From Zymomonas mobilis subsp. mobilis ATCC 10988 (GTDB lineage: Bacteria > Pseudomonadota > Alphaproteobacteria > Sphingomonadales > Sphingomonadaceae), in the NCBI RefSeq assembly GCF_000175255.2, contig NC_017262.1, forward strand, positions 960,001-992,000: 32,000 nucleotides of DNA, read 5' to 3'. The notes under the pieces were generated by a model. That model did not search any database. It was not told the origin of the DNA and saw only the letters and a list, made by a program, of their open reading frames with translations. The position numbers were made by a program, and so were the translations under genes. Shown in pieces: positions 3,975 through 20,131 of this stretch; position 1 is the first letter of the stretch, and each line of letters starts with the position of its first letter.

Positions 3975-4618
3975 TCCGGCTTGTTTTATTAATTCGTCGG
4001 GATTGCTCAATTTTGATCGGGGCAGGGGTATTTCTACCTGTCTTGTTTTTTTTATTGGTTGCCGTTCTATACCCTTTCGCGGTGGGCAGTGATCCCATAA
4101 TTTTATCGCGTACTGGTAGCGGAATATTATGGGTTGCCGCTCTGTTAGCTTCTTTGTTACCCATTGACCGTTTGATTATTCCCGATGTCGAAAATGGCTT
4201 TTTCGATCATTATGCGGTGCGCGGGATTAGCGAAGAATGGATAGCTGTGGCGCGTATTATCGCCCATTGGGTGAGTTTTGCTGTCCCTTTAATGGTGGCG
4301 TTGTTACCCGCCTCGGCTTTGCTATCTTTGGATTGGTCTGTTTTCTGGAAATTGGAAGCCGGATTTTTATTGGCTACTCCTGGACTGGCCTCTTTGGGGG
4401 TTATGATTGCCGCTTTGACGGCAAGGATAAAGTCCGGAAGTGGGTTGGCTGCTTTACTTTTATTGCCTTTGGCCGTGCCGCTCCTCATCTTTGGCGCGGG
4501 GGCTGTTGATGGTCATCAGCCTGGGGCCTTCCTATTATTGGCGGCTTGTTCGTTGTTTTTGCTTGCTGTCGCGCCTTTTGTCATCGGTGCCGCTTTGCGC
4601 ATCGGACAAGATGGGTAA
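3971..4618 (+). CDS. ccmB: Heme exporter permease CcmB
   Basis: The TTG start overlaps the ccmA stop (tTTGA). The product is a 215-aa polytopic membrane protein with a CcmB-like N-terminus (LIRRDCSIL, LFFLLVAVLYPFAVG, GILWVAALLASLLPIDRL). Its position directly after ccmA supports the call. Confidence 0.8.
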   Translation: MIRLVLLIRRDCSILIGAGVFLPVLFFLLVAVLYPFAVGSDPIILSRTGSGILWVAALLASLLPIDRLIIPDVENGFFDHYAVRGISEEWIAVARIIAHWVSFAVPLMVALLPASALLSLDWSVFWKLEAGFLLATPGLASLGVMIAALTARIKSGSGLAALLLLPLAVPLLIFGAGAVDGHQPGAFLLLAACSLFLLAVAPFVIGAALRIGQDG

Positions 4619-5522
4619 AAGGCTTACTGTATCGATTTAAGGCAGGCTTTGTGGTTGATAAAATCGAGATAGAGGTCAGCTTTTTCGAGGATGGATGCTC
4701 CGATAGTCATCGTAGGACGCCGTCTAGTATCTTTGAGGACTAATTTTTGTCTTTTTCTATAATTGATCCCATCAATAGATAAATCTGATTCCACGATATA
4801 GGCTGGATCAGTTATTTTATCTTTAGTAATGTCGGTGAATTCATCAATAATTTTCTTTTGTTTTTCAAATAATATTTGTTCTTCTGGCGTAAATTCAGAT
4901 TTGAACTGTAGTAAGTTAAAATCGGTGTTTTCTTCAGAAAGATCTATGGCAACTAGATCGGTTCTACCTTGCCATGTAATGGGGTATTTGAGTGCTTGGT
5001 AATCTCCTTCAAATGTACTTCCAAGATGAATGTCCTGTTGACAGTTACAGTTGATATTTTTGCCAAAGGTCATCTGCTGTTTATTTATTTTGATTTTACC
5101 CAGTTTTTGAAGAACCATCAGCCCCAAATAGGCTTTTTTTGTAGTAGTAAAGAGAACGGGAACGTTTTTTAAAACGGCTGTTCCGATTTTGAGTTCATCA
5201 ACAATACCGAGATCGCCACTAAAAATTTCAGCAGTCCCATTATCTGCATAGTTGATATGTCCAACAATATGGACATGGGGCGAATCTTTTAACTCTATGG
5301 GTAATTTACTAATCGCGGATTCCGTATCCAGAAGAAGAATCGTCTTTTTGCCATTTAAAGAGGCGTTAATATAAGGAATCTTCCAGGTTCTGTTCTTATT
5401 TATATCTTGATATTTTATCGGTAATGATTGTTTATGATCTATTCCGGTAACCGTAAAAGCGGGTATTAAAGAGGGAAATACAGTTAGACTTCCCATTTTT
5501 GTTGCTGAAAGGGAAAAATTTT

Positions 5523-6301
5523 CTAGGTTTTGTTGACAAAGGAAGGTAACCACAATTTTACGGCCGCGAGATGAAGGAAGGCGAGAAAAGATTTTCTGGT
5601 TTTGTCATAGCGTGTGGCAATGCGCCTGAACTGCTTTAGCTTATTAAACATCCGCTCAATACGATTACGATCTTTGTAGTGCTGGAGATTATAAGGAATA
5701 GGCTTTTTTCGATTGGAACGAGGCGGGATAACAGGAAGGATGCCTCGAAAAAGCAGTTTTTCGCGTAACCTATCGCTATCATATCCTTTATCAGCGAGAA
5801 AACAGTGGGGTGTTGTGACAGGGATATCTATCAAGCTATCAGCGCCAGAATAATCAGAGACCTCACCACCGGTTAGTGCGAAAGCTAGAGGGCGGCCTTG
5901 ACCATCGGAACGGGCGTGGATCTTGCTCGTAAAGCCTCCGCGACTGCGACCAAAGCCTTCCTTATACGTCCCCCTTTTGCGCCAGCCGCTTGGCTGTGGG
6001 CGCGAATAATCGTACTATCTATCATATGTTGCCAGTCATCTGTCAGGCCAAGGTCAACGAGAGTTTCAAGAAGAGCGTCCCACACACCCTGTTCTGCCCA
6101 CCTACGAAACCGAACATAGATCGAATTCCATTTCCCATAACGTTCATGCATATCTCGCCACGGGCAGCCTGTTCGAAGCACATAAAGCATACCATTGAGA
6201 AATAACCGATTACTTTTGGCGGGACGCGCGCAGCGGCCTCGTTCGCTTGGAAGAAGACCCTGTATTATCTCCCACTCCGCGTCCGTCAGATCTCCTCGCA
6301 T
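5523..6301 (-). CDS. IS5-family DDE transposase (OrfA 138 aa plus an overlapping OrfB frame; probable -1 frameshift)
   Basis: OrfA contains LTDAEWEIIQGLLP and RTGCPWRDMHERYG. The OrfB frame reads GRSRGGFTSKIHARSDGQGRPLAFALTGGEVSD, then LADKGYDSDRLR, then YKDRNRIERMFNKLKQFRRIATRYDK. The frames overlap at A-AAA-GGG (complement of 5972-5978). The stop TAG (5523-5525) lies just outside the IS end. Confidence 0.85.
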
Positions 6302-6374
6302 CCTATCTACCCTACAAAACTTGTTCTCAAGTTATCTCTAAAAATCTTAAATTATACCCTTTGTCAACAGAACC
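5526..6374 (-). mobile_element. IS5-family insertion sequence (IS427-group-like), copy A, 849 bp
   Basis: The terminal inverted repeats are GGTTTTGTTGACAAAGG (5526-) and GGTTCTGTTGACAAAGG (complement of 6358-6374). A 2-bp TA duplication lies in a CTAG target (tcTA|IS|TAgt). The element differs from copy B at only the few positions I compared. Confidence 0.9.
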
Positions 6375-6884
6375 TAGTCCCTTGAATTTTCGGATGACAG
6401 GATAATAAGTATTGTTGATGTTGTTGAGTTTTTCACCCCAAGCGGGAAGATTACCTTCCAAAAAATAATTACCAGCAGAAATCTGGTCGCAGGTCATCAC
6501 CACATTATTAATCGGAGGAAGTAGAGTAGGCGTGTTTGGGTCTTGGAAGAAGGTTTTTTTACATATTGCTAATTGTCGATTGACCTCTTCATAATTGCCT
6601 TTGACGAGCAACGCTTCAATTTTTGTAAATTTTTTGACGGTATTTGTTGTTTCTGGCTCATTAGCAATCTTTTCAATAAGGAGACTGTCTCCTTCGAAAA
6701 GGGCATCTACAAGCCTTTTATTCCCAGGGTTGAGCTCTACACCCTTTTGTTGTTCTTCTGCTGTTGTATTCCTTAGAAATTCGATTAATCTTTCAGAAAT
6801 GAGAGGCTTGTCAGCTTTCAATGGCGGCAGGAAAAAGCTGTTTAGAAGAAGGGGGTAGAGAAGAAATCGATATTTTTTAGGCAT

Positions 6885-6938
6885 GATAGGCTTCCGATAA
6901 AACAAGTTGTGATGACGCTCTTCCCCCTTCTTTGATAC
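6885..6938 (-). repeat. Conserved 54-bp inter-unit spacer (unit 7 stop to unit 8 start)
   Basis: On the coding strand it reads GTATCAAAGAAGGGGGAAGAGCGTCATCACAACTTGTTTTATCGGAAGCCTATC followed by ATG. It has the same length and about 90 percent of the same bases as the five other spacers. Confidence 0.9.
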
Positions 6939-8362
6939 TTACTGCGGTATGGGCTGTGCGTCCGAGTTGTTAGGCTTGAGGCAGGCTTTGTGATTGATAA
7001 AGTCGAGATAGAGATCAGCTTTTTCGAGGATAGATAATCCGATGATTGTGGCTAATCGAGATCGACTATCTTCTATAACTATTTCTTTTTTTTGCCCATA
7101 ATCCATATTATCCACGAACAAATTGCCTTTATTTGAAATAAACTGAAAACTTCAATTCTTTGTTATTTGGGTCTGGTCTTTCTTCGAAAGATTGTTCTTT
7201 CTCTTGTGGCGTAAATTCTGACTTATAAGTTGTTAAATTATAAACGGTATCATCTTGAGTGAAGTCAACTACCACTAAACGCGTGTGCCCCTGCCATGTA
7301 ATTGGATATTGGACCGATTGGAAATCGCCCCCCAATGCGCTGCCAAGGTGAATATCTTGCTGACAGTTACAATTGATATCCTTGCCAAAGGTCATCTGCT
7401 GTTTATTTATTTTGATTTTACCTAGTTTTTGTAAAATCATGAGTCCCAGATAGGCCTGATTGACATTGGTAAAAAGGAAGGGAACGTTTTTTAAAACGGC
7501 TTTTTCGATTTTGATTTCATCGACAATGCCAATGTCACCACTAAAAAATTCAGAAGCTCCATTCTTTGCCCGATCGAGATGCCCGACGATATGAACATGG
7601 GGAGAATGACGCCATTCTTCTGGCAATTTGCCAATGGCGGCACTGGTTTCCAAAAAGAAAGGAATGTTCTTTCCGTTTAGGGATGCGGTTATGTGGGGAA
7701 CGTAGTTAGCACTCCGCCTATGTTCTTCGTCTATAGCAACATCAAATTGCAGTTGAATGCGTTGCTGGTGATCTATCCCAGTAACCTTGAAGGGGGGTAT
7801 CGAATTCGGAGAGACCGACAATCTACCCATTTCGGCATCCGTAAGAGAGAATTCTTCTAATCCTGAAATTTTTCGGATGGGTGGATAATAGACATTTCTA
7901 ACAAAATTAAGACTTTTACCCCAATCTTTCAGATTACCATCCAAAAAGTAATTACCGACCAATGTTTGTTTGCATATTATCCCTACGCCACTGATGGGTG
8001 GAAATGGGTTGGGGGCATCGGGTTTTTGAAAGAAAGTCTTATCACAGATATCAAGTAATTTATTGGCATTTTGATAATCACCTTTAATGCGAAACTTGTT
8101 TATTTCAGCATATTTTTGGACAAGGTGACTGTTGCTTAGATCTTTAGCGACTTTGTCAATAAGCAGGTCGTCTCCCTCAGATAACCCTTTTCGCATTTCA
8201 TTACCGCCTGATCGCAATTCGATACCGTTTTTTAAATCTTCAGGCGTTTTTTGCTTAAGAAGTTCAATCAGTTTTGGTGAAACAAGGGGCTTGTCCGCTT
8301 TTAATGGTGGCAGGAAAAAGCTGTTTAGAAGAAGGGGATAGAGCAAAAATCGGTATTTCTTA
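6939..8362 (-). pseudogene. Array unit 7, inactivated by an IS insertion after codon 2 and by a 1-nt frameshift near the 3' end
   Basis: The start codon and second codon remain at 9212-9218 on the far side of IS copy B (ATGCC-TA|IS|TA-AGAAATACCG). The body is colinear with units 4-6. The reading frame stops at 7129 (KFSVYFK*) and resumes in another frame (NLFVDNMDYGQKK through ADLYLDFINHKACLKPNNSDAQPIPQ, ending at 6939). The length without IS and TSD is 1429 nt, one more than the 1428 nt of intact units. Confidence 0.85.
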
Positions 8363-9211
8363 GGTTCTGTTGACAAAGGGTATAATTTAAGATTTTTAGA
8401 GATAACTTGAGAACAAGTTTTGTAGGGTAGATAGGATGCGAGGAGATCTGACGGACGCGGAGTGGGAGATAATACAGGGTCTTCTTCCAAGCGAACGAGG
8501 CCGCTGCGCGCGTCCCGCCAAAAGTAATCGGTTATTTCTCAATGGTATGCTTTATGTGCTTCGAACAGGCTGCCCGTGGCGAGATATGCATGAACGTTAT
8601 GGGAAATGGAATTCGGTCTATGTTCGGTTTCGTAGGTGGGCAGAACAGGGTGTGTGGGACGCTCTTCTTGAAACTCTCGTTGACCTTGGCCTGACAGATG
8701 ACTGGCAACATATGATAGATAGTACGATTATTCGCGCCCACAGCCAAGCGGCTGGCGCAAAAGGGGGACGTATAAGGAAGGCTTTGGTCGCAGTCGCGGA
8801 GGCTTTACGAGCAAGATCCACGCCCGTTCCGATGGTCAAGGCCGCCCTCTAGCTTTCGCACTAACCGGTGGTGAGGTCTCTGATTATTCTGGCGCTGATA
8901 GCTTGATAGATATCCCTGTCACAACACCCCACTGTTTTCTCGCTGATAAAGGATATGATAGCGATAGGTTACGCGAAAAACTGCTTTTTCGAGGCATTCT
9001 TCCTGTTATCCCGCCTCGTTCCAATCGAAAAAAGCCTATTCCTTATAATCTCCAGCACTACAAAGATCGTAATCGTATTGAGCGGATGTTTAATAAGCTA
9101 AAGCAGTTCAGGCGCATTGCCACACGCTATGACAAAACCAGAAAATCTTTTCTCGCCTTCCTTCATCTCGCGGCCGTAAAATTGTGGTTACCTTCCTTTG
9201 TCAACAAAACC
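8363..9211 (+). mobile_element. IS5-family insertion sequence, copy B, 849 bp, inverted relative to copy A
   Basis: It has the same inverted repeats as copy A. The TA duplication sits in a CTAG-like site (ttcTTA|IS|TAGgcatg). I noticed only two differences from copy A: I/V in WNS(I/V)YVRF and a silent atc/att change. Confidence 0.9.
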
Positions 9212-9214
9212 TAG
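8436..9214 (+). CDS. IS5-family DDE transposase (OrfA plus OrfB; probable -1 frameshift at A-AAA-GGG, 8759-8765)
   Basis: The frame arithmetic was checked. OrfA codons run gca-aaa-ggg. The OrfB frame, defined by the TAG at 9212-9214, starts codons at 8759, which is a -1 offset. OrfB carries the DDE-region motifs listed for copy A. Confidence 0.85.
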
Positions 9215-9218
9215 GCAT

Positions 9219-9272
9219 GACAGGCTTTCAATAAAACAAGTTGTGATGACGCTCTTCCCCCTTCTTTGATAT
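9219..9272 (-). repeat. Conserved 54-bp inter-unit spacer (unit 6 stop to unit 7 start)
   Basis: On the plus strand it reads gacaggctttcaataaaacaagttgtgatgacgctcttcccccttctttgatat. Confidence 0.9.
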
Positions 9273-10700
9273 TTACTGCGGCATAGGCTGTGTGTCCGAA
9301 ATATTTGGTTTAAGACAGGCCTTATGATTGATGAAGTCGAGATAGAGGCTTGCTTTGTCTAGGATAGATGTACTTATAATTATTACTGGCTTGCGCCTAT
9401 TATCTTCTTCGACAAGTGCCTTTATTTTTCCATAGTTTATTCCATCAATAAATAAATTTTCGTTATTCAAATAACCGACAATTTTAATCATTTTTTTATT
9501 TGAATTTACATCTTCTTCGAAAGATTGTTTTTTTTCTTCAGCTGTAAATTGGAGCTTAAAGGTTAATAAGTTGAATATGGTATTATCTTGAGTAAAGTCG
9601 ACGGCAACTAAATTAGTTTTGCCTTGCCAAGTAATCGGATATTTAAGGGCTTGGAAGTCGCCCGCTAACGCGCTGCCAAGGTGGATATCTTGTTGACAAT
9701 TGCAATTGATATCCTTGCCAAAGATCATCTGCTGTTTATCTATCTTGATTTTACCGAGCTTTTGTAAAATCATGAGTCCCAGATAGGCTTGGCTGACATT
9801 GGTGAAAAGGAAGGGAACGTTTTTTAAAACAGCCTTCCCAATTTTGAGCTCATCAACGATGCCGAGATCGCCGCTATAAAATTCAGATGCAGCATTGGTT
9901 GCTCTCTCAATATGTCCAACGATATGGACATGAGGGGAATGGCTCCATGCTTTGGGTAATTTGCCAATAGCTGCGCTGGTTTCCAAAAAGAAAGGAACTT
10001 CTTTCTCGTTTAGGGAGGCTATTACATAAGGGACATGTTCCGCATTACGCCTAAAGTTTTCTTTTATAGGAATTTGATACTGTAGTGGAATGCTTTGTTG
10101 GTACTCTATGTCTGTAATAGTAAAGGGTTGTATTGGGTTCGGGGAGACAGATAGTCCTCCCATCTTAACATCCGCAAGGGAGAATTGTTGTAATCCTGAG
10201 ATTTTTCGAACGGGTGGGTAATAGATATTTTTAATAAAATCGAGGCTTTTACCCCAATCTTTGAGATTACCGTCCAGAAAATAATTACCGGCTAAAATCT
10301 GTTTGCATACCATGCCTATGGCATTGATAGGCGGTAACGAAGCTGAGGTGTCTGGTTTTTGAAAGAAAGTCTTATCACAGATATCAAGTAATTTATTGGC
10401 GCTTTGATAGTCTCCTTTGATGCGGAGCTTGTTTATTTCAGCATATTGGCTGGCAAGATTATTGCTTTCCAGCGCATTGATGGCTTTGTCGATGAGAAGG
10501 CTGTCGCCCTCCAATACCCCTTCTTGTATTTCATCGCCACCCAGTCGAATTTCAATACCGTTTTTTAACGTTTCAGGTGTTTGTTGCTTGAGAAGTTCGA
10601 TGAGCCTTGGAGAGATAAGAGGCTTGTCAGCTTTCAATGGCGGTAGGCAAAAGCTGTTTAGAAGAAGGGCATAGAGAAGAAATCGGTATTTCTTAGACAT
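9273..10700 (-). CDS. Array unit 6, intact, 475 aa: secreted TPR-like plus double retropepsin-like family protein
   Basis: The signal peptide is MSKKYRFLLYALLLNSFCLPPLKA|DKP. The helical N-domain contains KGDYQSANKLLDICDKTFF and LAGNYFLDGNLKDWGKSL. The lobe-1-like segment reads ASLNEKEVPFFLETSAAIGKLP, then LKIGKAVLKNVPFLFTN and AYLGLMILQKLGKIKIDKQQMIF. The lobe-2-like segment reads YPITWQGKTNLVAVDFTQD, then LFIDGINYG and SILDKASLYLDFINHKACL. Confidence 0.85.
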   Translation of the reverse strand: MSKKYRFLLYALLLNSFCLPPLKADKPLISPRLIELLKQQTPETLKNGIEIRLGGDEIQEGVLEGDSLLIDKAINALESNNLASQYAEINKLRIKGDYQSANKLLDICDKTFFQKPDTSASLPPINAIGMVCKQILAGNYFLDGNLKDWGKSLDFIKNIYYPPVRKISGLQQFSLADVKMGGLSVSPNPIQPFTITDIEYQQSIPLQYQIPIKENFRRNAEHVPYVIASLNEKEVPFFLETSAAIGKLPKAWSHSPHVHIVGHIERATNAASEFYSGDLGIVDELKIGKAVLKNVPFLFTNVSQAYLGLMILQKLGKIKIDKQQMIFGKDINCNCQQDIHLGSALAGDFQALKYPITWQGKTNLVAVDFTQDNTIFNLLTFKLQFTAEEKKQSFEEDVNSNKKMIKIVGYLNNENLFIDGINYGKIKALVEEDNRRKPVIIISTSILDKASLYLDFINHKACLKPNISDTQPMPQ

Positions 10701-10754
10701 GACAGGCTTTCAATAAAACAAGTTGTGATAACGCGCTTCCCCCTTCTTTGATAT
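10701..10754 (-). repeat. Conserved 54-bp inter-unit spacer (unit 5 stop to unit 6 start)
   Basis: On the plus strand it reads gacaggctttcaataaaacaagttgtgataacgcgcttcccccttctttgatat. Confidence 0.9.
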
Positions 10755-12182
10755 TTACTGCGATATAGGCGTAGCATCCGAATTGTTCGGCTTGAGGCAG
10801 GCCTTGTGATTGATGAAGTCGAGATAGAGAGTGACTTTGTTGAGGATAAACAAGCCCATAATGGTAGCTGGATCTTGGATAGTATCTTTTGCAATAAACT
10901 CTTCTCTTACTCCATAATTGATCCCATCAATGGATAAGTCAGATTTTACAATGCGCCCTTGACTTAGAACAGTTTTGTTATTTTCTTTTGTGGGGAATTG
11001 GAATGTGGTTTCTTGTTCTTCTTTTGTGAAATCTGGTTTAAATGTCCATAGCGTAAAGTCGCTATTATCCTCAGTAAGGTCAATTGCGACTAGACTGGTT
11101 TTACCTTGCCACGTAATTGGGTATTTGAGGGTTTGGAAATCGCCCCCCAATGCGCTGCCAAGATGGATATCTTGCTGACAATTACAATTGATATCCTTGC
11201 CAAAGGTCATTTGCTGTTTATCTATTTTGATTTTACCTAATTTTTGTAAAATCATGAGCCCCAGATAGGCTTGGCTGACATCGGTAAAAAGGAAGGGAAC
11301 GTTCTTTAAAACAGCTTTTCCAATTTTGAGCTCATCAACGATGCCGAGATCGCCACTAAAAAATTCAGATGCAGCATTGGTTGATCTATCGAGATGTCCG
11401 ATAATATGGACATGAGGGGAATGACTCCATGCTTTGGGTAGTTTTCCAATAGCGGCACCGGTTTCTAAAAAGAAAGGCACCTCTTTCCCATTCAACGAAA
11501 CCATTGCGGAAGGAACATTTTCAGCAAAACGCCGATGATCTTCATGTATCGGAATTTTATATTGTAGTGGAATGCTTTGCTGGTGATCTATGTCTGTAAT
11601 GGTGAATGGGGGTATAGAATCCGGAGAAACGGACAACCTCCCCATTTCAATATCTGTAAGCGAGAACTGCTCTAATCCTGAAATTTTTCGGATGGGGGGA
11701 TAATAGACATTTCTAACAAAATGAAGAATTTTAGCCCAATCTTTCAGATTACCATCTAAGAAGTAATTACCTGCTAAAATTTGTTGGCATGTCATACCTA
11801 CGCCACTGATGGGTGGAAGTAAGTCGGGATCATAGGGTTTTTGAAAAAAAGTTTTACCGCAGATATCCAGCAGTTTATTGGCGTTTTGATAGTCGCCTTT
11901 GACGCGTAATTTATCTATTTTAGCATATTGGCTGACGAGATTATTGCCTTTTAGTGCATTGGCGGCTTTGTCGATGAGTAGGTCATCTCCCTCTAATACT
12001 CCCCTTTGCATTTCTTCGTCACCCGGTCGAATTTCAATACCATTTTTTAACGTTTCAGGTGTTTGTTGCTTGAGAAGTTCGATCAATTTTGGAGAAACGA
12101 GAGGCTTGTCAGCTTTTAATTCTGACAGAAGGACGCTGTTTAGAAGAAGGGGGTAGAGAAGAAATCGGTATTTCTTAGGCAT
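10755..12182 (-). CDS. Array unit 5, intact, 475 aa: same family
   Basis: It begins MPKKYRFLLYPLLLNSVLLSELKA|DKP. Lobe 1 reads VSLNGKEVPFFLETGAAIGKLP, with the Glu codon at 11463-11465. Lobe 2 reads VAIDLTED, with the Asp codon at 11079-11081. The C-terminus is TLYLDFINHKACLKPNNSDATPISQ. Confidence 0.85.
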   Translation of the reverse strand: MPKKYRFLLYPLLLNSVLLSELKADKPLVSPKLIELLKQQTPETLKNGIEIRPGDEEMQRGVLEGDDLLIDKAANALKGNNLVSQYAKIDKLRVKGDYQNANKLLDICGKTFFQKPYDPDLLPPISGVGMTCQQILAGNYFLDGNLKDWAKILHFVRNVYYPPIRKISGLEQFSLTDIEMGRLSVSPDSIPPFTITDIDHQQSIPLQYKIPIHEDHRRFAENVPSAMVSLNGKEVPFFLETGAAIGKLPKAWSHSPHVHIIGHLDRSTNAASEFFSGDLGIVDELKIGKAVLKNVPFLFTDVSQAYLGLMILQKLGKIKIDKQQMTFGKDINCNCQQDIHLGSALGGDFQTLKYPITWQGKTSLVAIDLTEDNSDFTLWTFKPDFTKEEQETTFQFPTKENNKTVLSQGRIVKSDLSIDGINYGVREEFIAKDTIQDPATIMGLFILNKVTLYLDFINHKACLKPNNSDATPISQ

Positions 12183-12236
12183 GACAGGCTTTCGATAAAA
12201 CGAGTTGTGATGACGCGCTTCCCCCTTCTCTGATAT
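12183..12236 (-). repeat. Conserved 54-bp inter-unit spacer (unit 4 stop to unit 5 start)
   Basis: On the plus strand it reads gacaggctttcgataaaacgagttgtgatgacgcgcttcccccttctctgatat. Confidence 0.9.
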
Positions 12237-13664
12237 TTACTGTGGCATAGGCTGTGTGTCCGATTCATCCGGCATGAGACAGGCCTTGTGATTGATGAAG
12301 TCGAGATAGAGGCTGCCTTTGTCTAGGACAAACGCGCCTATAATCGTTGAAGGATTACGTATCGTATCTTTTATGACTAATTCTTTCTTCTTACCATAAT
12401 CAATCCCGTCGATAGATAAGTTGGACTCTGTGAAATAAGCAGGGTTTTTTATTTTAGTGCCGTCAACATTATTTGTAACATCAAAAAAATGGTTCTGTTG
12501 GTTCTTTAAAAATTTATCTTTGAAGGTGAGTATATCATAATCAATATTATTTTGAGTTAAATCAATTGCAGCAAAATTACGTTTATTTTTCCAATAAAAT
12601 GGATATTTTAATACTTGATGATCCCCTTTAAAGGTGATTCCAAAATGAACATCTTGTTGACAGATACAATTAACGTCTTTGCCAAAAATCATTTTCTGTT
12701 TATCTATTTTAATTTTTCCTAGCTTTTGTAAAATCATGAGTCCCAGATAGGCCTGATTGACATTGGTAAAAAGGAAGGGAACGTTCTTTAGCGTGGCATT
12801 TCCTATTTTTAATTCTTCGACAATACCGAGCTCGCCGCTATAATTTTCAGAAGCGGCATTATCTGCGTTATTAATATGCCCGATGAGGTGGACATTGGAC
12901 GCATGGCTAAATTTAGTTGGTAATTTGCCAATAGCGGCACCAGTTTCTAGAAAGAAGGGAATATCTTCTTTGTTTAATGAGGCAATTATAGACGGCAGTT
13001 TTTCCGCATTCCGCCTATAAATTTCCTCTATCGGAATTTGAAACTGCAACGGAACTGATTGTTGTTGCTCTATTCCTGTAACGGTAAAGGGAGGGATAGA
13101 ATCTGGAGAAATTGTCAAATTCCCCATCTTTGTTACAGCAAGAGAAAATTTTTCAAGTCCTTTAAATTTTTGGATAGCTGGGTAGTAGACATTTTCAATA
13201 AGGTTGAGTTCTATGCCCCAGTTTTTAATATCTCCCTCTAAAAAATAATTCCCTATAAGCATTTGACTGCAAGTCAATAATATACCGTTAATAGGTGATA
13301 ATAGATCCTGTGCATTTTTGTCTTGAAAGAAATTTTTATTGCATATTTCCAGTTGTCTATTGGCTTCTTGAAAAGCACCTTTAGATTGATAGACTTCAAT
13401 CTCAGCAAAATTCTGAACGATATTCGTGCTTTCTTTCGAAGTAGCAATTTTTTGAATTAAGGATGTATCTCCTTCGAATAAGGCTTGTTGAAGCTCTTCG
13501 CCACTAGGACGTAATTCTATGCCTTCTTGAAGCATTTCTGGTTTATATTGCCTGAGAATCTCGATCAATTTTGGAGAGACAAGGGGCTTGTCAGCTTTTA
13601 ATTCTGGCAGAAGAAAACTGTTTAGAAGAAGGGGATAGAGAAGAAATCGGTATTTCTTAGGCAT
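12237..13664 (-). CDS. Array unit 4, intact, 475 aa: the most divergent full-length member
   Basis: It has the same architecture and exactly the same length as units 5 and 6, despite many substitutions. It begins MPKKYRFLLYPLLLNSFLLPELKA|DKP. It contains FFLETGAAIGKLPTKFSHASNVHLIGH, AYLGLMILQKLGKIKIDKQKMIF and AAIDLTQNN, and ends SLYLDFINHKACLMPDESDTQPMPQ. Confidence 0.85.
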   Translation of the reverse strand: MPKKYRFLLYPLLLNSFLLPELKADKPLVSPKLIEILRQYKPEMLQEGIELRPSGEELQQALFEGDTSLIQKIATSKESTNIVQNFAEIEVYQSKGAFQEANRQLEICNKNFFQDKNAQDLLSPINGILLTCSQMLIGNYFLEGDIKNWGIELNLIENVYYPAIQKFKGLEKFSLAVTKMGNLTISPDSIPPFTVTGIEQQQSVPLQFQIPIEEIYRRNAEKLPSIIASLNKEDIPFFLETGAAIGKLPTKFSHASNVHLIGHINNADNAASENYSGELGIVEELKIGNATLKNVPFLFTNVNQAYLGLMILQKLGKIKIDKQKMIFGKDVNCICQQDVHFGITFKGDHQVLKYPFYWKNKRNFAAIDLTQNNIDYDILTFKDKFLKNQQNHFFDVTNNVDGTKIKNPAYFTESNLSIDGIDYGKKKELVIKDTIRNPSTIIGAFVLDKGSLYLDFINHKACLMPDESDTQPMPQ

Positions 13665-13718
13665 GACAGGCTTTCGATAAAATGAGTTGTGATGACGCTC
13701 TTCCTCCTTCTTTGATAT
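13665..13718 (-). repeat. Conserved 54-bp inter-unit spacer (unit 3 remnant stop to unit 4 start)
   Basis: On the plus strand it reads gacaggctttcgataaaatgagttgtgatgacgctcttcctccttctttgatat. Confidence 0.9.
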
Positions 13719-14037
13719 TTACTGCGGTATGGGCTGTTCGTCCGAATTGTTCGGCTTGAGGCAGGCTTTGTGATTGATGAAGTCGAGATAGAGGTCAGCT
13801 TTTTCGAGGATGGATACCCCCATTGATCGAAACGGACGATGAACACTATCCTTTTTAAATAATTCTTTTGTTTTTCCATAATTGATACCATCAATTATGA
13901 GATTAACTTCTTTTTGGTAAATAGATTCCTCCTTTGACTTTGTATTTGGTAAATTTGTAGTAATTTCTCTAGATTTTTTTTCTTCTTCTGGCGTAAAATT
14001 ATGTTGGGAAATAATAATACTGACATCGTCGAGACTA
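13719..14037 (-). pseudogene. Array unit 3, a 3' remnant of ~106 codons; the rest is missing at the IS C junction
   Basis: It reads SLDDVSIIISQHNFTPEEEKKS, then LIIDGINYGKTKELFKKD, then SILEKADLYLDFINHKACLKPNNSDEQPIPQ. This aligns to about residue 370 onward of intact units. The 131-aa track ORF (13719-14114) borrows its N-terminus from IS sequence. Confidence 0.8.
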
Positions 14038-14884
14038 GGCTCAGGACTCATTCTTTGAGATAGAAGATGAAACTTGCTGCGATATGGATTGCTGACATGA
14101 ATGTGTGAGCGCACCGGTCGTATCGTGTTGCGACACGCCGCCAGTCTTTGAGCTTTGCGAACATATTTTCGATGAGGTGACGCTTTTTATACAGATGCCA
14201 GTCGTAAGGCGGCTTTGATTTCCGGTTCTTCTTCGGCGGAATACAGGCGGTGATATTCCGGTCTGCGAGAGACTGTCTGATTTTATTACTGTCGTATCCC
14301 CGGTCCCCGAGAATTTCTTGTGTTTCTTCCGGCAGATTTGCCAGCAGAACATCCGCGCCTTTGAAGTCACTGACCTGACCTGCGGTCAGATGCAGCCGGA
14401 CAGGGCGGCCCTGACTATCGCATACAGCGTGAAGCTTTGAGTTCAGTCCGCCTTTCGTGCGTCCGATATGGCGGGGAAAAGCCCCTTTTTGAGCAGGGAG
14501 GCCGCTGTCCGGTGTGCTTTCAGATGTGTTGCATCGATCATCAGACGCTTCGAACGGCCTGCCTGCTCCGTCAGGGCGACGAAGATCCGGTCAAAGACAC
14601 CCAGGCGGCTCCACCGGATAAACCGGTTGTATAAAGTCTTGTGCGGGCCATACGCTTTCGGGGCGTCTTTCCACTGAAGGCCGTTGCGGATCACGTAAAC
14701 GATCCCGCTCAGGACACGACGGTCATCGACACGCGGCACACCATGCGCCAGTGGAAAAAACGGCTTAATCCGTTCCATCTGGTGCTCAGACAGCAAAAAC
14801 ACGTCACTCACAGCTTCACCTCCATCGGTAAACCTGTGAATCACAACAGCCCGCTCAACTCAAGAAATTAACAGGTCCTGAGCC
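14038..14884 (-). mobile_element. Second IS5-family element (IS C), 847 bp; a different sequence from copies A and B
   Basis: The terminal inverted repeat is GGCTCAGGAC (14038-14047 and complement of 14875-14884). The flanks are gagacTA|IS|TAggttt. It carries OrfA/OrfB transposase frames. Confidence 0.85.
14048..14844 (-). CDS. IS5-family DDE transposase of IS C (OrfA 133 aa plus a -1 frame OrfB)
   Basis: OrfA contains LSEHQMERIKPFFP, IRNGLQWKDAPKAYGPHKTLYNRFIRWSRLGVF and IDATHLKAHRTAASLLKKG. My hand translation of the -1 frame from the A-run at 14482-14490 gives GAFPRHIGRTKGGLNSKLHAVCDSQGRPVRLHLTAGQVSD, then LGDRGYDSNKIRQ, then YKKRHLIENMFAKLKDWRRVATRYDR, ending at TGA (14048-14050). Confidence 0.8.
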
Positions 14885-16277
14885 TAGGTTTAAGACAGGC
14901 CTTGTGATTGATGAAGTCGAGATAGAGGCTGCCTTTGTCTAGGATCGACACGCCTATAACTTTAGCCGGGATATGTAATTCGTCTTTTTCTACAGATTTT
15001 AGTCTTTTGCCGTAGTCGATGCCATCAATGGAAAGATTACCATCCGTTAAATAAATAGAAGAAATTATTTTCTTTCCATTTATTTCGCGATCCATTTCAA
15101 AAGATTGTTTTTCCTCTTCGGGGGTGAAGTCAGGTTGGAAGACCATAAAACTAAGATGGGCATCAGTGAGTCTAAGATTAATGGCAGCCATCTCGGTCTT
15201 TCCTTGCCATGTGATTTGATATCTTAAAGCATGAAAACGGCCGTCAAATATGCTGCCAAGTTGGATGTCTTTCTGGCAGTGACAATCAATATCTTTTCCG
15301 AAAGTGAAATATTGCCGATCTATTTTTATTTTGCCTAATTTTTGAAGAACCATCAGGCTAAGGGACGCTTCATCTGTATTTGTAAACAGGAACGGGACAT
15401 TTTTTAGAATCGCCGTCCCGATTTTTAGCTCATCAACAATACCAAGATCGCCATTATAGGCTTCGCCACGTCCATTGGTCGCTATTTCAATATGTCCGAC
15501 GATATGGACGTGAGGCGAATGGCTTAAGGCTTTGGGTAAGAAACTAATTGCGGTATCTGTTCCTAAGAAAAATGAGAAATCGGTTCCGTTTAAAGATGCG
15601 GTTAAATAAGGGACATTCCAAGTAATACTTTTATTGCCTTCTTGAGTAAATTTTTGGGATTGTAGCGGCAGTGTTTGCTGCTGATCTATTCCGGTAACAG
15701 TGAAGGGGGGGATCTCACTGGGGGGAACTGAAAGGTTGCCCATTTTAATATCGAAAAGAGAAAATTGCTCTAATCCTGCAAATTTTCGGATGGGAGGGTA
15801 GTAAGTATTTTTGATGTCATCAATTTTTTTGCCCCAAGCAGCAAGATTGCCTTCAAGAAAATAATTTCCCGCCAAGAGCTGATCACAGATCATGGCACCC
15901 AGATTTATAGGCGAAAGATGTATCCCGCTGCCCTCCATAAAATAGGTTTTATGGCAAATCTTGAGCTGTCTATCCGCTTCTTTGAAGTCGCCTTTAGTTC
16001 TTAGTAGATCTGTGTTTATAAATTTCTTTTCAAAGTTGGTGCGTTTCGGATCATCGATCATTTTTTGGAGATGAAGGCTATCTCCTTCGTAAAGGGCTAA
16101 AGTACTTTCATCGCCACCAGGGGCGACCTTTAGCCCTTCCTTTAAAGTTTGAGGGCTTTGCTGCTTTAGAAAGTCAACCAATCTGGAAGAGGGAAGGCTC
16201 TTTGTTGCTTTTAATGGTGGCAGGAGAACGCTGTTTAGAAGAAGGGGGTAGAGAAGAGATCGGTATTTTTTGAACAT
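14868..16277 (-). CDS. Array unit 2: a near-copy of unit 1 with a family-type signal peptide; its 3' end is replaced by IS C sequence
   Basis: It begins MFKKYRSLLYPLLLNSVLLPPLKA|TKSLPSS. The start is taken at ATG 16277 by homology, whereas the track ORF starts 7 codons upstream. The interior is almost identical to unit 1. The C-terminus reads FINHKACLKP-RLRTC*, with the last 5 codons and the stop coming from inside IS C (end 14884) instead of NNSDATPIPQ. Confidence 0.7.
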   Translation of the reverse strand: MFKKYRSLLYPLLLNSVLLPPLKATKSLPSSRLVDFLKQQSPQTLKEGLKVAPGGDESTLALYEGDSLHLQKMIDDPKRTNFEKKFINTDLLRTKGDFKEADRQLKICHKTYFMEGSGIHLSPINLGAMICDQLLAGNYFLEGNLAAWGKKIDDIKNTYYPPIRKFAGLEQFSLFDIKMGNLSVPPSEIPPFTVTGIDQQQTLPLQSQKFTQEGNKSITWNVPYLTASLNGTDFSFFLGTDTAISFLPKALSHSPHVHIVGHIEIATNGRGEAYNGDLGIVDELKIGTAILKNVPFLFTNTDEASLSLMVLQKLGKIKIDRQYFTFGKDIDCHCQKDIQLGSIFDGRFHALRYQITWQGKTEMAAINLRLTDAHLSFMVFQPDFTPEEEKQSFEMDREINGKKIISSIYLTDGNLSIDGIDYGKRLKSVEKDELHIPAKVIGVSILDKGSLYLDFINHKACLKPRLRTC

Positions 16278-16331
16278 AAAAGGCTTTCGATAAAACAAGT
16301 TGTGATGACGCTCTTCCCCCTTCTTTGATAT
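16278..16331 (-). repeat. Conserved 54-bp inter-unit spacer (unit 1 stop to unit 2 start)
   Basis: On the plus strand it reads aaaaggctttcgataaaacaagttgtgatgacgctcttcccccttctttgatat. Confidence 0.9.
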
Positions 16332-17756
16332 TTACTGCGGTATAGGTGTAGCGTCCGAATTGTTCGGCTTGAGGCAGGCTTTGTGATTGATGAAGTCGAG
16401 ATAGAGGTCAGCTTTTTCAAGAATTGTAATTGTCATGACTTTAGAAAATATGCGTAGTTTATCTTTTTGTACAGATTTTTGTCTTTTGCCGTAGTCAATG
16501 CCATCAATGGAAAGATTGCCATCTTTTAAATAAATAGAAGCGGTTACTTTCGTTCCGTCAATTTCTTTACTAATTTCAAAAGATTGTTTTTCTTCTTCAG
16601 GGGTAAAATCAGGTTGGAAGAGCATAAAGCTAAAACGGGCATCGCTCTGGCTAAGATCAATAGCCGCCATCTCGGTCTTTCCTTGCCATGTGATCGGATA
16701 TCTTAGGGCATAAAAACGGCCGTCAAATATGCTGCCAAGTTGGATGTCTTTCTGACAGTGACAGTCAATATCTTTTCCGAAAGTGAAATGTTGCCGATCT
16801 ATTTTTATTTTGCCTAATTTTTGAAGAACCATCAGACCAAGAGAAGCTTCATCCGTATTTGTAAACAGGAACGGGACATTTTTTAAAACCGTCGTCCCGA
16901 TTTTTAGCTCATCAACAATACCAAGATCGCCGTTATAGGCTTCGCCACGTCCATTGGTCGCTATTTCAATATGTCCGACGATATGGACGTGAGGCGAATG
17001 GCTTAAGGCTTTGGGTAAGAAACTAATTGCGGTATCTGTTCCTAAGAAAAATGAGAAATCGGTTCCGTTTAAAGATGCGGTTAAATAAGGGACATTCCAA
17101 GTACTGCGCCTATAGCCTTCTTGGGTAAGTTTCTGAGATTGTAGAGGCAGTGTTTGCTGCTGATCTATTCCGGTAACGGTGAAGGGGGGTATCTCACTGG
17201 GGGGAACTGAAAGGTTGCCCATTTTAATATCGAAAAGAGAAAATTGCTCTAATCCTGCAAATTTTCGGATCGGAGGGTAGTAAGTATTTTTGATGTCATC
17301 AATTTTTTTACCCCATGCAGCAAGATTGCCTTCGAGAAAATAATTTCCCGCCAAGAGCTGATCACAGATCATGGCACCCAGATTTATAGGCGAAAGATGT
17401 ATCCCGCTGCCCTCCATGAAATAGGTTTTATGGCAAATCTCGAGCTGCCTATCCGCTTCTTTGAAGTCGCCTTTGGTTCTTAGTAAGTCTGTATTTATAA
17501 ATTTTTTTTCAAAGCTGGTGCGCTTGGGATCATCGATCATTTTTTGGAGATGAAGGCTATCTCCTTCGTAAAGGGCTAAGGTGCTTTCATCGCCACCAGG
17601 GGCGACCTTTAGCCCTTCCTTTAAAGTTTGAGGGCTTTGCTGTTTTAGAAAGTCAACCAGTTTGGAAGAGGGAAGGCTCTCCTCAGCTTTGACTTTAGAA
17701 AAGGCTAAAAGTTCAGAAAAAAGAAATAGAGTAAGAAATAGATATTTTTTTAGCAT
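16332..17756 (-). CDS. Array unit 1 (first unit), intact, 474 aa, with a unique signal peptide
   Basis: The preferred start is ATG 17756 (MLKKYLFLTLFLFSELLAFSKVKA|EE), which gives a classic n-h-c signal peptide. The track ORF extends 14 codons further to 17798. The lobe-1 position reads FFLGTDTAISFLP and lobe 2 reads AAIDLSQSD. The C-terminus is ADLYLDFINHKACLKPNNSDATPIPQ. Confidence 0.85.
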   Translation of the reverse strand: MLKKYLFLTLFLFSELLAFSKVKAEESLPSSKLVDFLKQQSPQTLKEGLKVAPGGDESTLALYEGDSLHLQKMIDDPKRTSFEKKFINTDLLRTKGDFKEADRQLEICHKTYFMEGSGIHLSPINLGAMICDQLLAGNYFLEGNLAAWGKKIDDIKNTYYPPIRKFAGLEQFSLFDIKMGNLSVPPSEIPPFTVTGIDQQQTLPLQSQKLTQEGYRRSTWNVPYLTASLNGTDFSFFLGTDTAISFLPKALSHSPHVHIVGHIEIATNGRGEAYNGDLGIVDELKIGTTVLKNVPFLFTNTDEASLGLMVLQKLGKIKIDRQHFTFGKDIDCHCQKDIQLGSIFDGRFYALRYPITWQGKTEMAAIDLSQSDARFSFMLFQPDFTPEEEKQSFEISKEIDGTKVTASIYLKDGNLSIDGIDYGKRQKSVQKDKLRIFSKVMTITILEKADLYLDFINHKACLKPNNSDATPIPQ

Positions 17757-17799
17757 AAATATTTCCGTTTTTAGAGCAATGAAGCATTCATGCTGCATT

Positions 17800-18216
17800 C
17801 TAGAAAGGTAAAGGTAAACCTATCCCTATTGTACCAGAAGTACCATTTGATGGACTATGGCTAATAGAAGTTGTTAATTGTCCCAAATTAGTTAGCGGAA
17901 TTTTATTCAATTGTAATGATCCTCCCACTCCGGGAGGAGATACCGAAGAATAATTGCCATAAATTTTAGCACCAAGATTATTATTTTTACACTCTAGTAT
18001 CGGTTTTATATTAAGAACATGATGATTAATTTCTCCGCCAATATCTAATGTACAGGCATTATCGTCATTATAGCGATTATCTAAGGGTTTATAACGATAG
18101 CGATCCGATGGATTTTGAGGCTGCGAATTTAAAAAATTTAATAGACTTTGTGCTAATATCGGTTTTTTATCAGAGATCATCAGATCTTTATTATTTTTTT
18201 GTGAATTGTTGTCCAA
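17800..18216 (-). CDS. Hypothetical 138-aa protein directly upstream of the array (Asn/Ser/Gly-rich, ends GTIGIGLPLPF)
   Basis: An open frame of 138 codons in very AT-rich DNA is unlikely to occur by chance. It has a TTG start and no recognisable signal peptide. The stop TAG (17800-17802) abuts unit 1. I recognise no family, so coding status is uncertain. Confidence 0.4.
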   Translation of the reverse strand: MDNNSQKNNKDLMISDKKPILAQSLLNFLNSQPQNPSDRYRYKPLDNRYNDDNACTLDIGGEINHHVLNIKPILECKNNNLGAKIYGNYSSVSPPGVGGSLQLNKIPLTNLGQLTTSISHSPSNGTSGTIGIGLPLPF

Positions 18217-18343
18217 TTTTATACTCCATTCATTAATAAAAGTGATATGGAGTGGTGTATCTGTTTTTATCCAACAATTATTATATGAAATAACATTTTT
18301 ATTTGAGATATTGGTTCGTGCGGTGATGGGTGGCTGAACTGGC

Positions 18344-20131
18344 TTGCCTTTTTCCTATTCTATTGAGATAGCCAATTTTGTGACTTGGATTTTTGCATTT
18401 CTGGCCGGATTTGTCGCGGCCTTGGGATTACAGCCTTATAATCTTTGGGGATGCAGTCTTGTGGCTGTGGCTGGATGGCTGGCCTTATTGCGACAAACCC
18501 AAAAGACTTGGCAGATTTTTGCCCTTAGTTGGCTTTTTGCTTTCGGTTTTTTCTGGTTAGGGCTGGACTGGATTGCGACTTCTTTTACCCATCAGGCTGC
18601 GATGCCGTCATGGTTAGGTTGGGTCGCGGTACCTTTATTATCCTGTTATTTGGCCTGTTATATTTCTCTTTTTACTTTGCCCCTTCGTTTCTTATGTCTT
18701 TCTTTCCGGCGAGGCGAAAAAAGAGTGGATTCTTTTCAGTCGTCTGATGGGATTGGGGATGGTGCGGATTCCGAGGATATCGATGCTATTCCTTCCCGTC
18801 TTTTTCCTGTTGAGAATGACGCGGCGGTAGCGCGTGAAGGGACGATGAAAAGCCGTTTTTTTGTTGGGTCTGCTGCTTTTTGGTCTGTGCCTGTTTTCAG
18901 TATATCTTTGTCGCAAATACCGCTTTGGCGTTTGACGCTGGCCTTGGCGGGATGTTTGACATGGGGCGAATGGATAAAATCATGGGTTTTTACTGGATTC
19001 CCGTGGAGCCCGTTAGGAGCAATCTGGCTGAATATCCTGCCCATAGCGCATATCGCCCGATGGATCGGGAGTTACGGCCTGTCGGCTCTTGTGGTTATTG
19101 CCGCCGGTATCGGATTATCTTGTTATGACGGAATCAAATTAGCCATAGAGAAAAGACAGGCGAGGCAGGCTATCCGGTCGCTCCTTCCTGCGTTTTGGAT
19201 GGCTTTACCTTTTTTAGGATGGGCGTTGGTCGATGGTCATGACATCCATTGGCAAAAATCAGAGCAGCCGCCTGCTCATGTGGTGATTGTCCAGCCGAAT
19301 ATCCCGCAGGATGAAAAATACGATCTCCGTTATAAATCTCGTCATGATGCTATTTTCAAGAAATTGTCAGGGAAGAGTGATCTCCATTATCCCCGCCTGA
19401 TTTTATGGCCAGAAGATGCGGTTCAAAGCTATCTTGAAGAAGAGCCTTTGGCACGGGCAGCTTTGAGCCGTTTATTGGGCAAAAATGATCTGTTGTTGAC
19501 GGGGGGCGATGCTTTGATCCCCGATAATTCCGGTCATATCGCTTCGGTTCGGAATAGTTTATTTGTCCTTGACGCCAAGGGCGATATTTTAGACCGCTAT
19601 GACAAAGCCCATCTGGTGCCTTTCGGGGAATATATGCCTTTTCGGAAATGGGCGGCCTATGTCGGATTAGGGCGGTTGGTCGCTGGTGATATAGAATTCA
19701 CCGAAGGGGCGCAGCCTGAAAGTCTTGATCTGGTGCCTTTTGGTCTGGTCGGGATTCAGATTTGCTATGAAATCGTTTTTTCCGGTCGAGTAGTTGATCG
19801 CGCCCATCGCCCCGATTTCATTTTCAATTTGTCCAATGATAGCTGGTTTGGTCGATCGGGCCCGCCCCAACATTTGGCACAAGCGCGATTGCGGGCGATT
19901 GAAGAGGGGCTGCCTATCGCGCGAGCCACTTCTACCGGTATTTCTGCGGTGATTGATGCAGAAGGGCGTATCCTGCAATTTTTGCCTGAAAATACCGAAG
20001 GACGGCTTTTAGCGGTGATGCCGAAAGCGTTGCAACCGACCTTTTTTGCCCGCTACGGCAACCTGATTAGTGTGCTTTTTGCCACGGCTCTGTTGCTCAT
20101 TGCCCTGTTTGGGCGTATTAAGTTACGCTAG
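18344..20131 (+). CDS. lnt: Apolipoprotein N-acyltransferase
   Basis: The N-terminus is polytopic and includes GFPWSPLG. The C-terminal carbon-nitrogen hydrolase domain shows VVIVQPNIPQDEKY, LILWPEDA, KAHLVPFGEYMPF, ICYEIVF and NLSNDSWFG. A final transmembrane segment follows. The start is TTG. Confidence 0.85.
   Translation: MPFSYSIEIANFVTWIFAFLAGFVAALGLQPYNLWGCSLVAVAGWLALLRQTQKTWQIFALSWLFAFGFFWLGLDWIATSFTHQAAMPSWLGWVAVPLLSCYLACYISLFTLPLRFLCLSFRRGEKRVDSFQSSDGIGDGADSEDIDAIPSRLFPVENDAAVAREGTMKSRFFVGSAAFWSVPVFSISLSQIPLWRLTLALAGCLTWGEWIKSWVFTGFPWSPLGAIWLNILPIAHIARWIGSYGLSALVVIAAGIGLSCYDGIKLAIEKRQARQAIRSLLPAFWMALPFLGWALVDGHDIHWQKSEQPPAHVVIVQPNIPQDEKYDLRYKSRHDAIFKKLSGKSDLHYPRLILWPEDAVQSYLEEEPLARAALSRLLGKNDLLLTGGDALIPDNSGHIASVRNSLFVLDAKGDILDRYDKAHLVPFGEYMPFRKWAAYVGLGRLVAGDIEFTEGAQPESLDLVPFGLVGIQICYEIVFSGRVVDRAHRPDFIFNLSNDSWFGRSGPPQHLAQARLRAIEEGLPIARATSTGISAVIDAEGRILQFLPENTEGRLLAVMPKALQPTFFARYGNLISVLFATALLLIALFGRIKLR

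Follow-up and report, generated by a model that had tools for sequence, protein, structure and literature searches.

An array of degenerate retropepsin-like genes

The window analyzed here, a 32,000-nucleotide stretch of Zymomonas mobilis subsp. mobilis ATCC 10988 (NC_017262.1, positions 960,001 to 992,000), carries eight consecutive genes of one family that fill positions 4624-17798 on the minus strand, as established by a repeat search and the listing of open reading frames (ORFs). These units are a catalytically degenerate, tandemly amplified offshoot of the clan AA retropepsin-like family, and are classified as such since they pass the fold and profile tests while failing the catalytic signature. 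Considered jointly, we find it narrowly probable that the locus represents an operon-like array of Sec-exported, non-catalytic binding proteins with a two-lobe retropepsin fold, kept diverse by recombination at the gene junctions. Export, lack of proteolysis, a binding function and a single promoter are the parts of this reading that we infer.

The head-to-tail arrangement of eight units between ccmB and lnt, proposed already in a first-pass annotation of the DNA, was confirmed, and so was its strict 1482-bp period. The start codons at 13664, 12182, 10700 and 9218 are separated by exact 1482-bp steps, each composed of a 1428-nt gene and a 54-nt spacer, despite protein identities of only 58-72% among the intact units of this run (5, 4 and 3). 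Further 54-nt spacers are located between units 8/7, 6/5 and 2/1. The array corresponds to ZMO0263-0270 of strain ZM4, a numbering derived from P0001 (ZMO0267), P0009 (ZMO0265) and lnt (ZMO0271), with the eight units running from ZMO0270 down to ZMO0263. All 26 of the 26 close homologues stem from Zymomonas, and a genome scan using the array alignment recovered three loci only, all in this genus. In the window strain merely units 8, 5, 4 and 3 are intact, the four others being damaged by three IS5-family insertion sequence (IS) elements and one 1-nt frameshift. The units, starting with the first array gene, and the flanking genes are:

16332..17756, minus strand: unit 8, 474 aa, intact, first array gene; true start at ATG 17756 (not 17798)
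14868..16277, minus strand: unit 7, 469 aa, native down to 14885; true start at ATG 16277 (not 16298)
13719..14037, minus strand: unit 6 remnant, the C-terminal 106 codons, P0012-type, without a ZM4 counterpart
12237..13664, minus strand: unit 5, 475 aa, intact; ETGA / DLTQ; no ZM4 unit exceeds 59% identity to it
10755..12182, minus strand: unit 4, 475 aa, intact; ETGA / DLTE; ZMO0267 ortholog (96% identical) and the protein used for modelling
9273..10700, minus strand: unit 3, 475 aa, intact; ETSA / DFTQ; 99% identical to ZM4 unit 5
9212..9218, minus strand: orphaned unit 2 start, ATGCCTA, severed from the unit 2 body by IS-A
6939..8362, minus strand: unit 2 body, ZMO0265 type; ETSA / DFTQ
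6375..6884, minus strand: unit 1 N-terminal part, with signal peptide and helical domain
4624..5525, minus strand: unit 1 C-terminal part, with both lobes; DTES / DLSE
3971-4618, plus strand: ccmB (Pfam CcmB), flanking the array
18344-20131, plus strand: lnt (LNT_N/CN_hydrolase), flanking the array

A predicted single-chain, two-lobe retropepsin-like fold

Pfam recognizes one Asp_protease_2 (PF13650) domain per unit, covering residues ~228-309 of lobe 1 with E values from 2e-4 to 3e-10. Units 4, 2, 3, 5 and 8 score 41.3, 28.0, 27.8, 26.2 and 25.2 bits, respectively, relative to a gathering score of 24.3, and units 7 and 1 fall just under this value (22.6 and 22.4 bits). Lobe 2 of the units yielded no Pfam match even at E<=10, an hhalign comparison of lobe 1 and lobe 2 returned a probability of 0.2% and no internal-repeat signal, and PF00026 of pepsin family A1 was not matched in the units, the resemblance to that family being at the fold level only. 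Lobe 2 of a catalytically intact paralog (P0099), which is homologous to lobe 2 of the units, does match PF13975 at residues 349-442. Of the expected tetratricopeptide repeat (TPR) match followed by two retropepsin matches, a single PF13650 match in lobe 1 was obtained, neither the second domain nor a TPR being detected.

The AlphaFold2 model of unit 4, generated from an alignment of 25 family members (predicted local distance difference test score, pLDDT, 77.8; predicted template modelling score, pTM, 0.78), displays helices at residues 31-165, followed by beta-rich lobes at ~194-330 and ~340-465. Foldseek identified 9IY9 as the best match in the PDB (E 1e-14, 456 aligned columns, TM 0.65), and thereafter pepsin-like proteases with two lobes, by the hundred and with E ~1e-7, such as Candida SAPs, plasmepsins, pepsin and renin. 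Inactive Bla g 2, histo-aspartic protease (HAP) and tethered HIV protease dimers are also among the matches.

Searching 1.84 billion representative proteins with a profile retrieved 73 relatives, most of them 400-490 aa in length and many matched near full length (e.g. query 56-467 and 5-466). Those named belong to acetic acid bacteria (Gluconobacter, Asaia, Swingsia and Lichenicola), Stenotrophomonas, Dyella and Tannerellaceae, and they are annotated as 'retropepsin-like' or 'predicted aspartyl protease', the NCBI name for members being 'retropepsin-like aspartic protease'. Distant full-length relatives possess two D-T/S-G motifs ~130 residues apart. A broad-family profile matches 9IY9 by sequence (E 5e-21, two DTG-containing domains), as well as the Rickettsia retropepsin (ApRick, E 1e-8), HIV protease and DDI1; the array-family profile found no sequence match in the PDB. 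A homologue search with the intact paralog of Z. mobilis subsp. pomaceae as query returned only that protein.

Congruent with the initial proposal of a pseudo-dimeric retropepsin fold, the AlphaFold model, the Foldseek matches and the full-length relatives with two motifs all point in the same direction, and the predicted second lobe and overall two-lobe fold of the units are in this manner supported.

Loss of the catalytic motifs

The units do not carry the motif FLxDTGAS that had been proposed for them, the corresponding lobe 1 segments instead reading FFLETGAA, FFLETSAA, FFLGTDTA or LLLDTESA. At the aligned catalytic positions, D[TS]G is present in 0 of 25 Zymomonas array-type proteins, in lobe 1 or in lobe 2; among non-array relatives it is found in 40 of 43 for lobe 1 and in 41 of 43 for lobe 2. 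The lobe 1 variants of the array proteins comprise ETGA, ETSA, GTDT, ETDT, EIGA, DTES and ATDT. In lobe 2 the motif is D[LF][TS][QE], with five proteins having NLRL, NLNQ or SLSQ, and the ILGxD helix motif that is conserved in the family reads LGLM in the units. Degeneracy extends to the one unit that strain AN0101 possesses (ETSA/DFTQ), and consequently no strain seen has an intact motif at the array locus. In families A1 and A2, losing either catalytic Asp abolishes activity. Considering this and that D-T/S-G is missing from both lobes, the units are most likely non-catalytic pseudoproteases.

The closest intact relative is a singleton of Z. mobilis subsp. pomaceae (AEI37885/WP_013934281, with DTGT and DSGS), 28-31% identical to the units and encoded at an unrelated locus with an ABC-F ATPase gene on one side and ahcY on the other (L004 10001-11296). 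The pomaceae chromosome showed no array-type cluster, and the intact gene and the degenerate array may be mutually exclusive between the subspecies. Half-degenerate relatives, in which one or both lobes lack the motif, are present in acetic acid bacteria (Gluconobacter P0100, GTAT/DTGD; Swingsia P0112, DTGT/NTGD; Lichenicola P0113, DTNS/GSGD), which live in sugar-rich niches like Zymomonas; this suggests a repeated, independent drift towards pseudoproteases in the family.

The motif remnants may alternatively be read as those of active, acid-adapted aspartic/glutamic endopeptidases that employ a non-canonical pair (a lobe 1 Glu, or an Asp at +2, together with the lobe 2 Asp) and have eight substrate specificities. 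One acidic residue does remain among the three motif positions of each lobe 1 variant, and the second position holds a nearly invariant Thr, yet the acidic residue shifts between paralogs (position 0 versus +2). Similarly, the lobe 2 Asp is kept in 20 of 25 proteins, but it is absent from the remaining five, and the lobe 2 Gly is lost, accompanied by what resembles, by eye, a one-residue insertion relative to D-T-G-D-N of Acetobacteraceae relatives. HAP, recovered among the Foldseek matches, is active despite replacement of one catalytic Asp, and Zymomonas lives at low pH; on the other hand, D-to-E replacement of the catalytic Asp inactivates pepsin and HIV protease. The retained fold and purifying selection (see below) fit with catalysis, while the change of the conserved ILGxD helix motif to LGLM does not. 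We therefore hold proteolytic activity to be unlikely, and favor the pseudoprotease assignment.

Probable export and the N-terminal helical domain

The N-termini of the units read MPKKYRFLLYPLLLNS.LLP.LKA|DKP, with an n-region KK(Y)R of charge +2/+3, a subsequent hydrophobic stretch and a conserved L-K-A|D site at residue 24, as located by a heuristic script. Applied to the relatives, this crude rule marks 37 of 43 as signal-peptide-like. Five cysteines are invariant in the units, two of them being conserved family-wide, and no lipobox Cys is present in the units. Aggregated, the N-terminal features and the invariant cysteines fit with export of the array proteins, which is probable. Signal peptides were originally assigned to every unit; this does not apply to unit 6, a 106-codon remnant, and has little meaning for unit 2, whose stub has been cut off by an IS element. 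The putative signal peptide of unit 8 is distinct from those of the other units, with the leader MLKKYLFLTLFLFSELLAFSKVKA|EES.

The subsequent domain, for which a TPR-like helical region had been suggested, is all-helical with paired helices in the AlphaFold2 model, and one segment fits TPR positions by eye. However, isolated N-domains gave no TPR or Sel1 profile match at E<=10 and full proteins none at E<=1, and an AlphaFold2 model of the isolated domain (six sequences) reached a pLDDT of 49, too poor for a structure search. Thus, 'TPR-like' is a description of this domain rather than a finding.

Leader ORF, spacers and junctions

Upstream of the first unit and between the units, the following elements are located:

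18217..18343, minus strand: lnt-array intergenic region, the presumed promoter region of the array operon
17800..18216, minus strand: leader ORF, 138 aa from TTG or 126 aa from ATG 18180, abutting unit 8
16278-16331, 13665-13718, 12183-12236, 10701-10754, 9219-9272 and 6885-6938, minus strand: 54-nt inter-unit spacers, ~90% identical to each other and containing AAGAAGGGGGAAGAG (counted as seven, with coordinates listed for six)

The intergenic region is conserved in an alignment of four Zymomonas strains (the window strain, ZM4, AN0101 and W26). Scanning for sigma-70 promoters and terminators yielded nothing above shuffle expectation, and no terminators at unit boundaries. In all strains seen, the leader ORF immediately precedes the first unit (138, 155, 133 and 230 aa in the four; counterparts at L001 5056-5523, L006 9431-9832 and L005 9289-9981). 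It is rich in Asn, Ser and Gln, lacks a signal peptide and has a hypervariable, indel-rich 3' half, with a terminal Phe in three of the four strains. For its first 95 codons, the proportions of nonsynonymous and synonymous differences (pN/pS) between the window and ZM4 are 0.027/0.114, which suggests that the leader ORF is translated. Neither Pfam nor PADLOC returned a match for it, and the array units have no PADLOC defence-system match.

Each 54-nt spacer represents 18 sense codons in frame with both neighbouring genes (e.g. 12183-12236), leaving a single TAA between consecutive ORFs, so that readthrough would fuse the units. In the divergent metagenome-assembled genome W26 the junction spacer is 55 nt and of different sequence (L007, 1351-1405). 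All internal junctions show complementarity between AAGAAGGGGGAAGAG of the spacer and CTCTACCCCCTTCTT, located in codons 8-13 (LLYPLLL) of the unit that follows. The predicted pairing spans the spacer and the first ~45 nt of the following unit, so that the start codon falls within a loop of ~65 nt; neither arm is present in the first unit. This RNA hairpin is predicted at all internal junctions, with folding z-scores of only -1.1 to -1.9, and no compensatory changes were found among the junctions. The codons of the signal peptide h-region are conserved at synonymous sites, possibly because they serve as an arm of the junction pairing.

Two further kinds of ORF recur at the units. Antisense ORFs of 69-87 aa are present opposite the 5' parts (10417-10674, 11899-12156, 8132-8341 and 6595-6858, plus strand), and out-of-frame sense ORFs extend across junctions (10658-10894, 13622-13894 and 16235-16420). 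Both are probably by-products of the conserved junction sequence.

Divergence and strain comparison

Whole-gene dN/dS ranges from 0.10 to 0.36 for every computable pair, and dS is saturated between paralog types. In windows of 20 codons pN/pS reaches 0.69 at most and is lowest (0.11-0.20) at residues 281-340 and at the C-terminus; no such window has pN/pS >1, as judged by a crude method with saturated dS. Rather than the rapidly evolving family that was first suspected, the array genes are, by these substitution patterns, old paralogs under purifying selection.

About 90 residues are invariant across the units, the five cysteines included. Sequence entropy is highest in lobe 2 (372-380, 392-412 and 430-443) and at 208-225, and lowest at 280-317 and 449-462. 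By secondary-structure analogy, some of the variable segments may correspond to retropepsin flap and active-site loops. Towards either end of the genes synonymous divergence is reduced (pS 0.39 and 0.36-0.49 versus 0.6-0.9 in the gene body), and combined with the ~90% identity of the spacers at all junctions this indicates that the junction module, composed of C-terminal tail, spacer and signal-peptide codons, is homogenised.

In ZM4 the locus is arranged as lnt, a 155-aa leader ORF, eight intact units (467-477 aa) and ccmB, all spacers being exactly 54 nt. The copy number is 8 in ZM4 and 1 at the same locus in AN0101. Unit 8 of the window is a mosaic, with a 5' end as in ZM4 unit 1 and a 3' part as in ZM4 unit 3 (99-100%), and unit 7 combines a 5' boundary of ZM4 unit-4 type with a body of ZM4 unit-1 type. 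Unit 5 has no ZM4 counterpart.

Expression in ZM4

According to Table S1 of a published ZM4 omics study, the eight array transcripts fall together (log2 fold changes of -0.5 to -1.6) with lnt unchanged. The proteomics data of the same study (Table S2) quantify all eight array proteins in 24 of 24 samples, at label-free quantification intensities of 2e7-8e8, the promoter-proximal ZMO0270 being the most abundant of the eight. In addition, ZMO0265 is up 2.3-fold under ethanol stress (PMC3495753), and ZMO0268 and ZMO0270 are up with phenolic aldehydes (PMC4578398). The array units are accordingly real, simultaneously expressed proteins in ZM4, and because all eight are present at once they are not silent cassettes.

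These data bear on whether the locus is a recombination-driven variation system, in which cassettes are shuffled to change a displayed envelope protein, for example in escape from phages, bacteriocins or host factors. Conserved junction modules next to divergent unit bodies, units that are mosaic between strains with differing repertoire and copy number, and a promoter-proximal first unit that has its own leader and yields the most abundant protein would all be in line with such a system. The hallmark of such systems of the pilS or vls type, unexpressed donor cassettes without a start of their own, is nevertheless missing, as every unit forms a complete gene that has an ATG and a signal peptide to itself, and the simultaneous presence of all eight ZM4 proteins likewise speaks against it. 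Moreover, neither a dedicated recombinase nor an invertible promoter is apparent within the window, and the mosaics are fixed strain differences. We consider the variation system highly unlikely.

That the units are the decaying debris of a duplicated and inactivated protease family without present function is very improbable: the catalytic motifs are lost, window units 1, 2 and 6 are destroyed and unit 7 altered, AN0101 keeps one unit and the array of a sister assembly is truncated by an IS-mediated rearrangement, but dN/dS stays at 0.10-0.36 across anciently diverged paralogs, ZM4 maintains eight intact ORFs with exact 54-nt spacing, its eight proteins accumulate and its eight transcripts are co-regulated, and the ~90 invariant residues, five cysteines among them, persist.

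A putative repertoire of exported binding proteins

We return to the array of exported, non-catalytic binding proteins as the favored explanation. It would be an operon-like, Zymomonas-specific tandem array in which as many as eight paralogs follow a small leader ORF, presumably served by a single promoter. Each paralog would consist of a signal peptide of ~24 residues, an all-helical domain of ~165 residues and a retropepsin fold (clan AA, pepsin-like) with two lobes in a single chain. With the catalytic D-T/S-G lost from both lobes, the products would most likely act as cleft-containing binding modules in the periplasm or cell envelope, each presenting a different lobe 2 and different loop and hairpin segments, which we provisionally equate with retropepsin flaps. 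Homologous recombination at the near-identical junction module (3' gene tail, 54-nt spacer and signal-peptide codons) would then maintain and reshuffle the array.

Several observations weigh against this explanation. Confidence in lobe 2 of the unit 4 model is moderate (pLDDT about 60-80), and the placement of the variable segments along the cleft comes solely from secondary-structure analogy with retropepsin flaps. The acidic residue of each lobe 1 variant and the lobe 2 Asp of most array proteins, described above, would be compatible with a non-canonical catalytic pair. As for export, the h-region of the units (FLLYPLLLNS.LL) is unusually weakly hydrophobic, with KD10 values of 1.4-2.3 versus 2-3.5 in most relatives. 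The array is furthermore at least partly dispensable in the window strain, as four of its eight units are damaged. Genomic context is uninformative, the two inspected loci of intact relatives being singletons among housekeeping genes that offer no functional hint.

A more specific proposal is that the units form a diversified repertoire of exported pepsin-fold pseudoproteases that binds or neutralises foreign proteins, for instance lytic enzymes, proteases or toxins of yeasts, plants and bacteria in sugary saps, new specificities arising by junction recombination. They would then parallel, in bacteria, the TAXI/XEGIP pepsin-fold inhibitors of plants, an idea that we deem distinctly unlikely in this particular form.

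Comparison with known proteins

The family was initially taken to be uncharacterised, and in support of this no functional study of the array family was found in the literature; however, an NCBI name exists, a crystal structure of a homologue is available (9IY9), and omics papers refer to the ZM4 cluster. 9IY9 (PDB release 2025) is a B. fragilis 'exported protein / putative endopeptidase' on which no paper was found. It shares with the units a single chain of ~420-470 aa, with an N-terminal helical region and two retropepsin-like lobes, but differs by having DTG in both lobes (FIFDTGAG and HFDTGNS), a motif found in none of the Zymomonas units, and its identity to them is ~13%.

The intact 'retropepsin-like aspartic protease' relatives (pomaceae AEI37885, Stenotrophomonas, Dyella, Asaia and Tannerellaceae) have in common with the units a signal peptide, two lobes, the helical motifs R..G and AGN..L.G....W, a conserved Cys pair and the C-terminal LDF....CL. 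They deviate by retaining D[TS]G in the two lobes, share 17-31% identity with the units, and at the two loci inspected are single genes; no array outside Zymomonas was seen at these two loci.

Pepsin family A1, inactive Bla g 2 included, exhibits the same bilobal pseudo-dimeric fold (Foldseek E ~1e-7), whereas the units lack a PF00026 match, have retropepsin-sized lobes and an extra N-terminal helical domain, and are bacterial and tandemly arrayed. Inactive pepsin-fold proteins include the plant TAXI-I/XEGIP inhibitors and the pregnancy-associated glycoproteins. Such inactive A1 members set a precedent, in that the fold can outlast catalytic function and take on a new role in secreted proteins that bind or inhibit, and among them Bla g 2 and TAXI-I/XEGIP are the nearest functional analogues of the units.

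Within clan AA, RloA and Rickettsia APRc/ApRick (PDB 5C9B), secreted or periplasmic proteins, come closest among the exported retropepsins of bacteria that have been characterised, and both act as homodimers. They are otherwise dissimilar, being single-domain proteins (ApRick PDB chains of 134-139 residues) that are active with DTG/DSG, and having no helical N-domain and no array. RloA of P. aeruginosa is an exported, small, catalytically active single-domain retropepsin (PMC12239564).

As far as our searches show, no bacterial radiation of two-lobe retropepsin-fold proteins that are catalytically dead has been described before, and the array would be the first. With eight paralogs side by side in an industrial ethanologen, the array offers a tractable case of re-purposing of a protease fold after loss of catalysis, for which the intact pomaceae singleton is a natural control. 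It also supplies a candidate function class for the 'hypothetical' cluster ZMO0263-0270, which is recurrent in stress transcriptomes, and illustrates how gene bodies can diverge to saturation within a tandem family whose recombination is sustained by conserved gene boundaries.

Insertion sequences in the window array

The three IS5-family elements are:

14038..14884, minus strand: IS-B, an 847-bp IS5-family element with a DUF4096 transposase N-terminus
8363..9211, plus strand: IS-A copy 2, an 849-bp IS5-family element with two ORFs of 138 and 103 aa (DUF4096, DDE_Tnp_1_2)
5526..6374, minus strand: IS-A copy 1, splitting unit 1, in opposite orientation to copy 2 and identical to it at 847 of 849 positions

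All three are flanked by CTA|...|TAG, i.e. a TA duplication, and IS-B is different from the IS-A pair. IS-B, in a region of locally raised GC content, has replaced the last 11 codons of unit 7, the final codons RLRTC* originating from the element. Across the element, the 3' end of unit 7 is connected with codon ~375 of unit 6, an arrangement that implies an IS-associated deletion. Unit 2 is disabled twice, having lost its start to IS-A copy 2, which lies within a CTAG site with a TA target duplication, and carrying a +1 A frameshift at ~7132-7134. Unit 1, split by IS-A copy 1, ends with ...HKACLKSIQ* without a junction tail, 5 nt from the ccmB stop. Assembly VFOH01 has the same arrangement as the window. 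In the sister assembly VFOI01 (L008 14451-15229) the array is cut at IS-A and runs on into hfq/hflX, and this junction together with the three insertions at CTAG marks the array as a hotspot for IS-mediated rearrangement.

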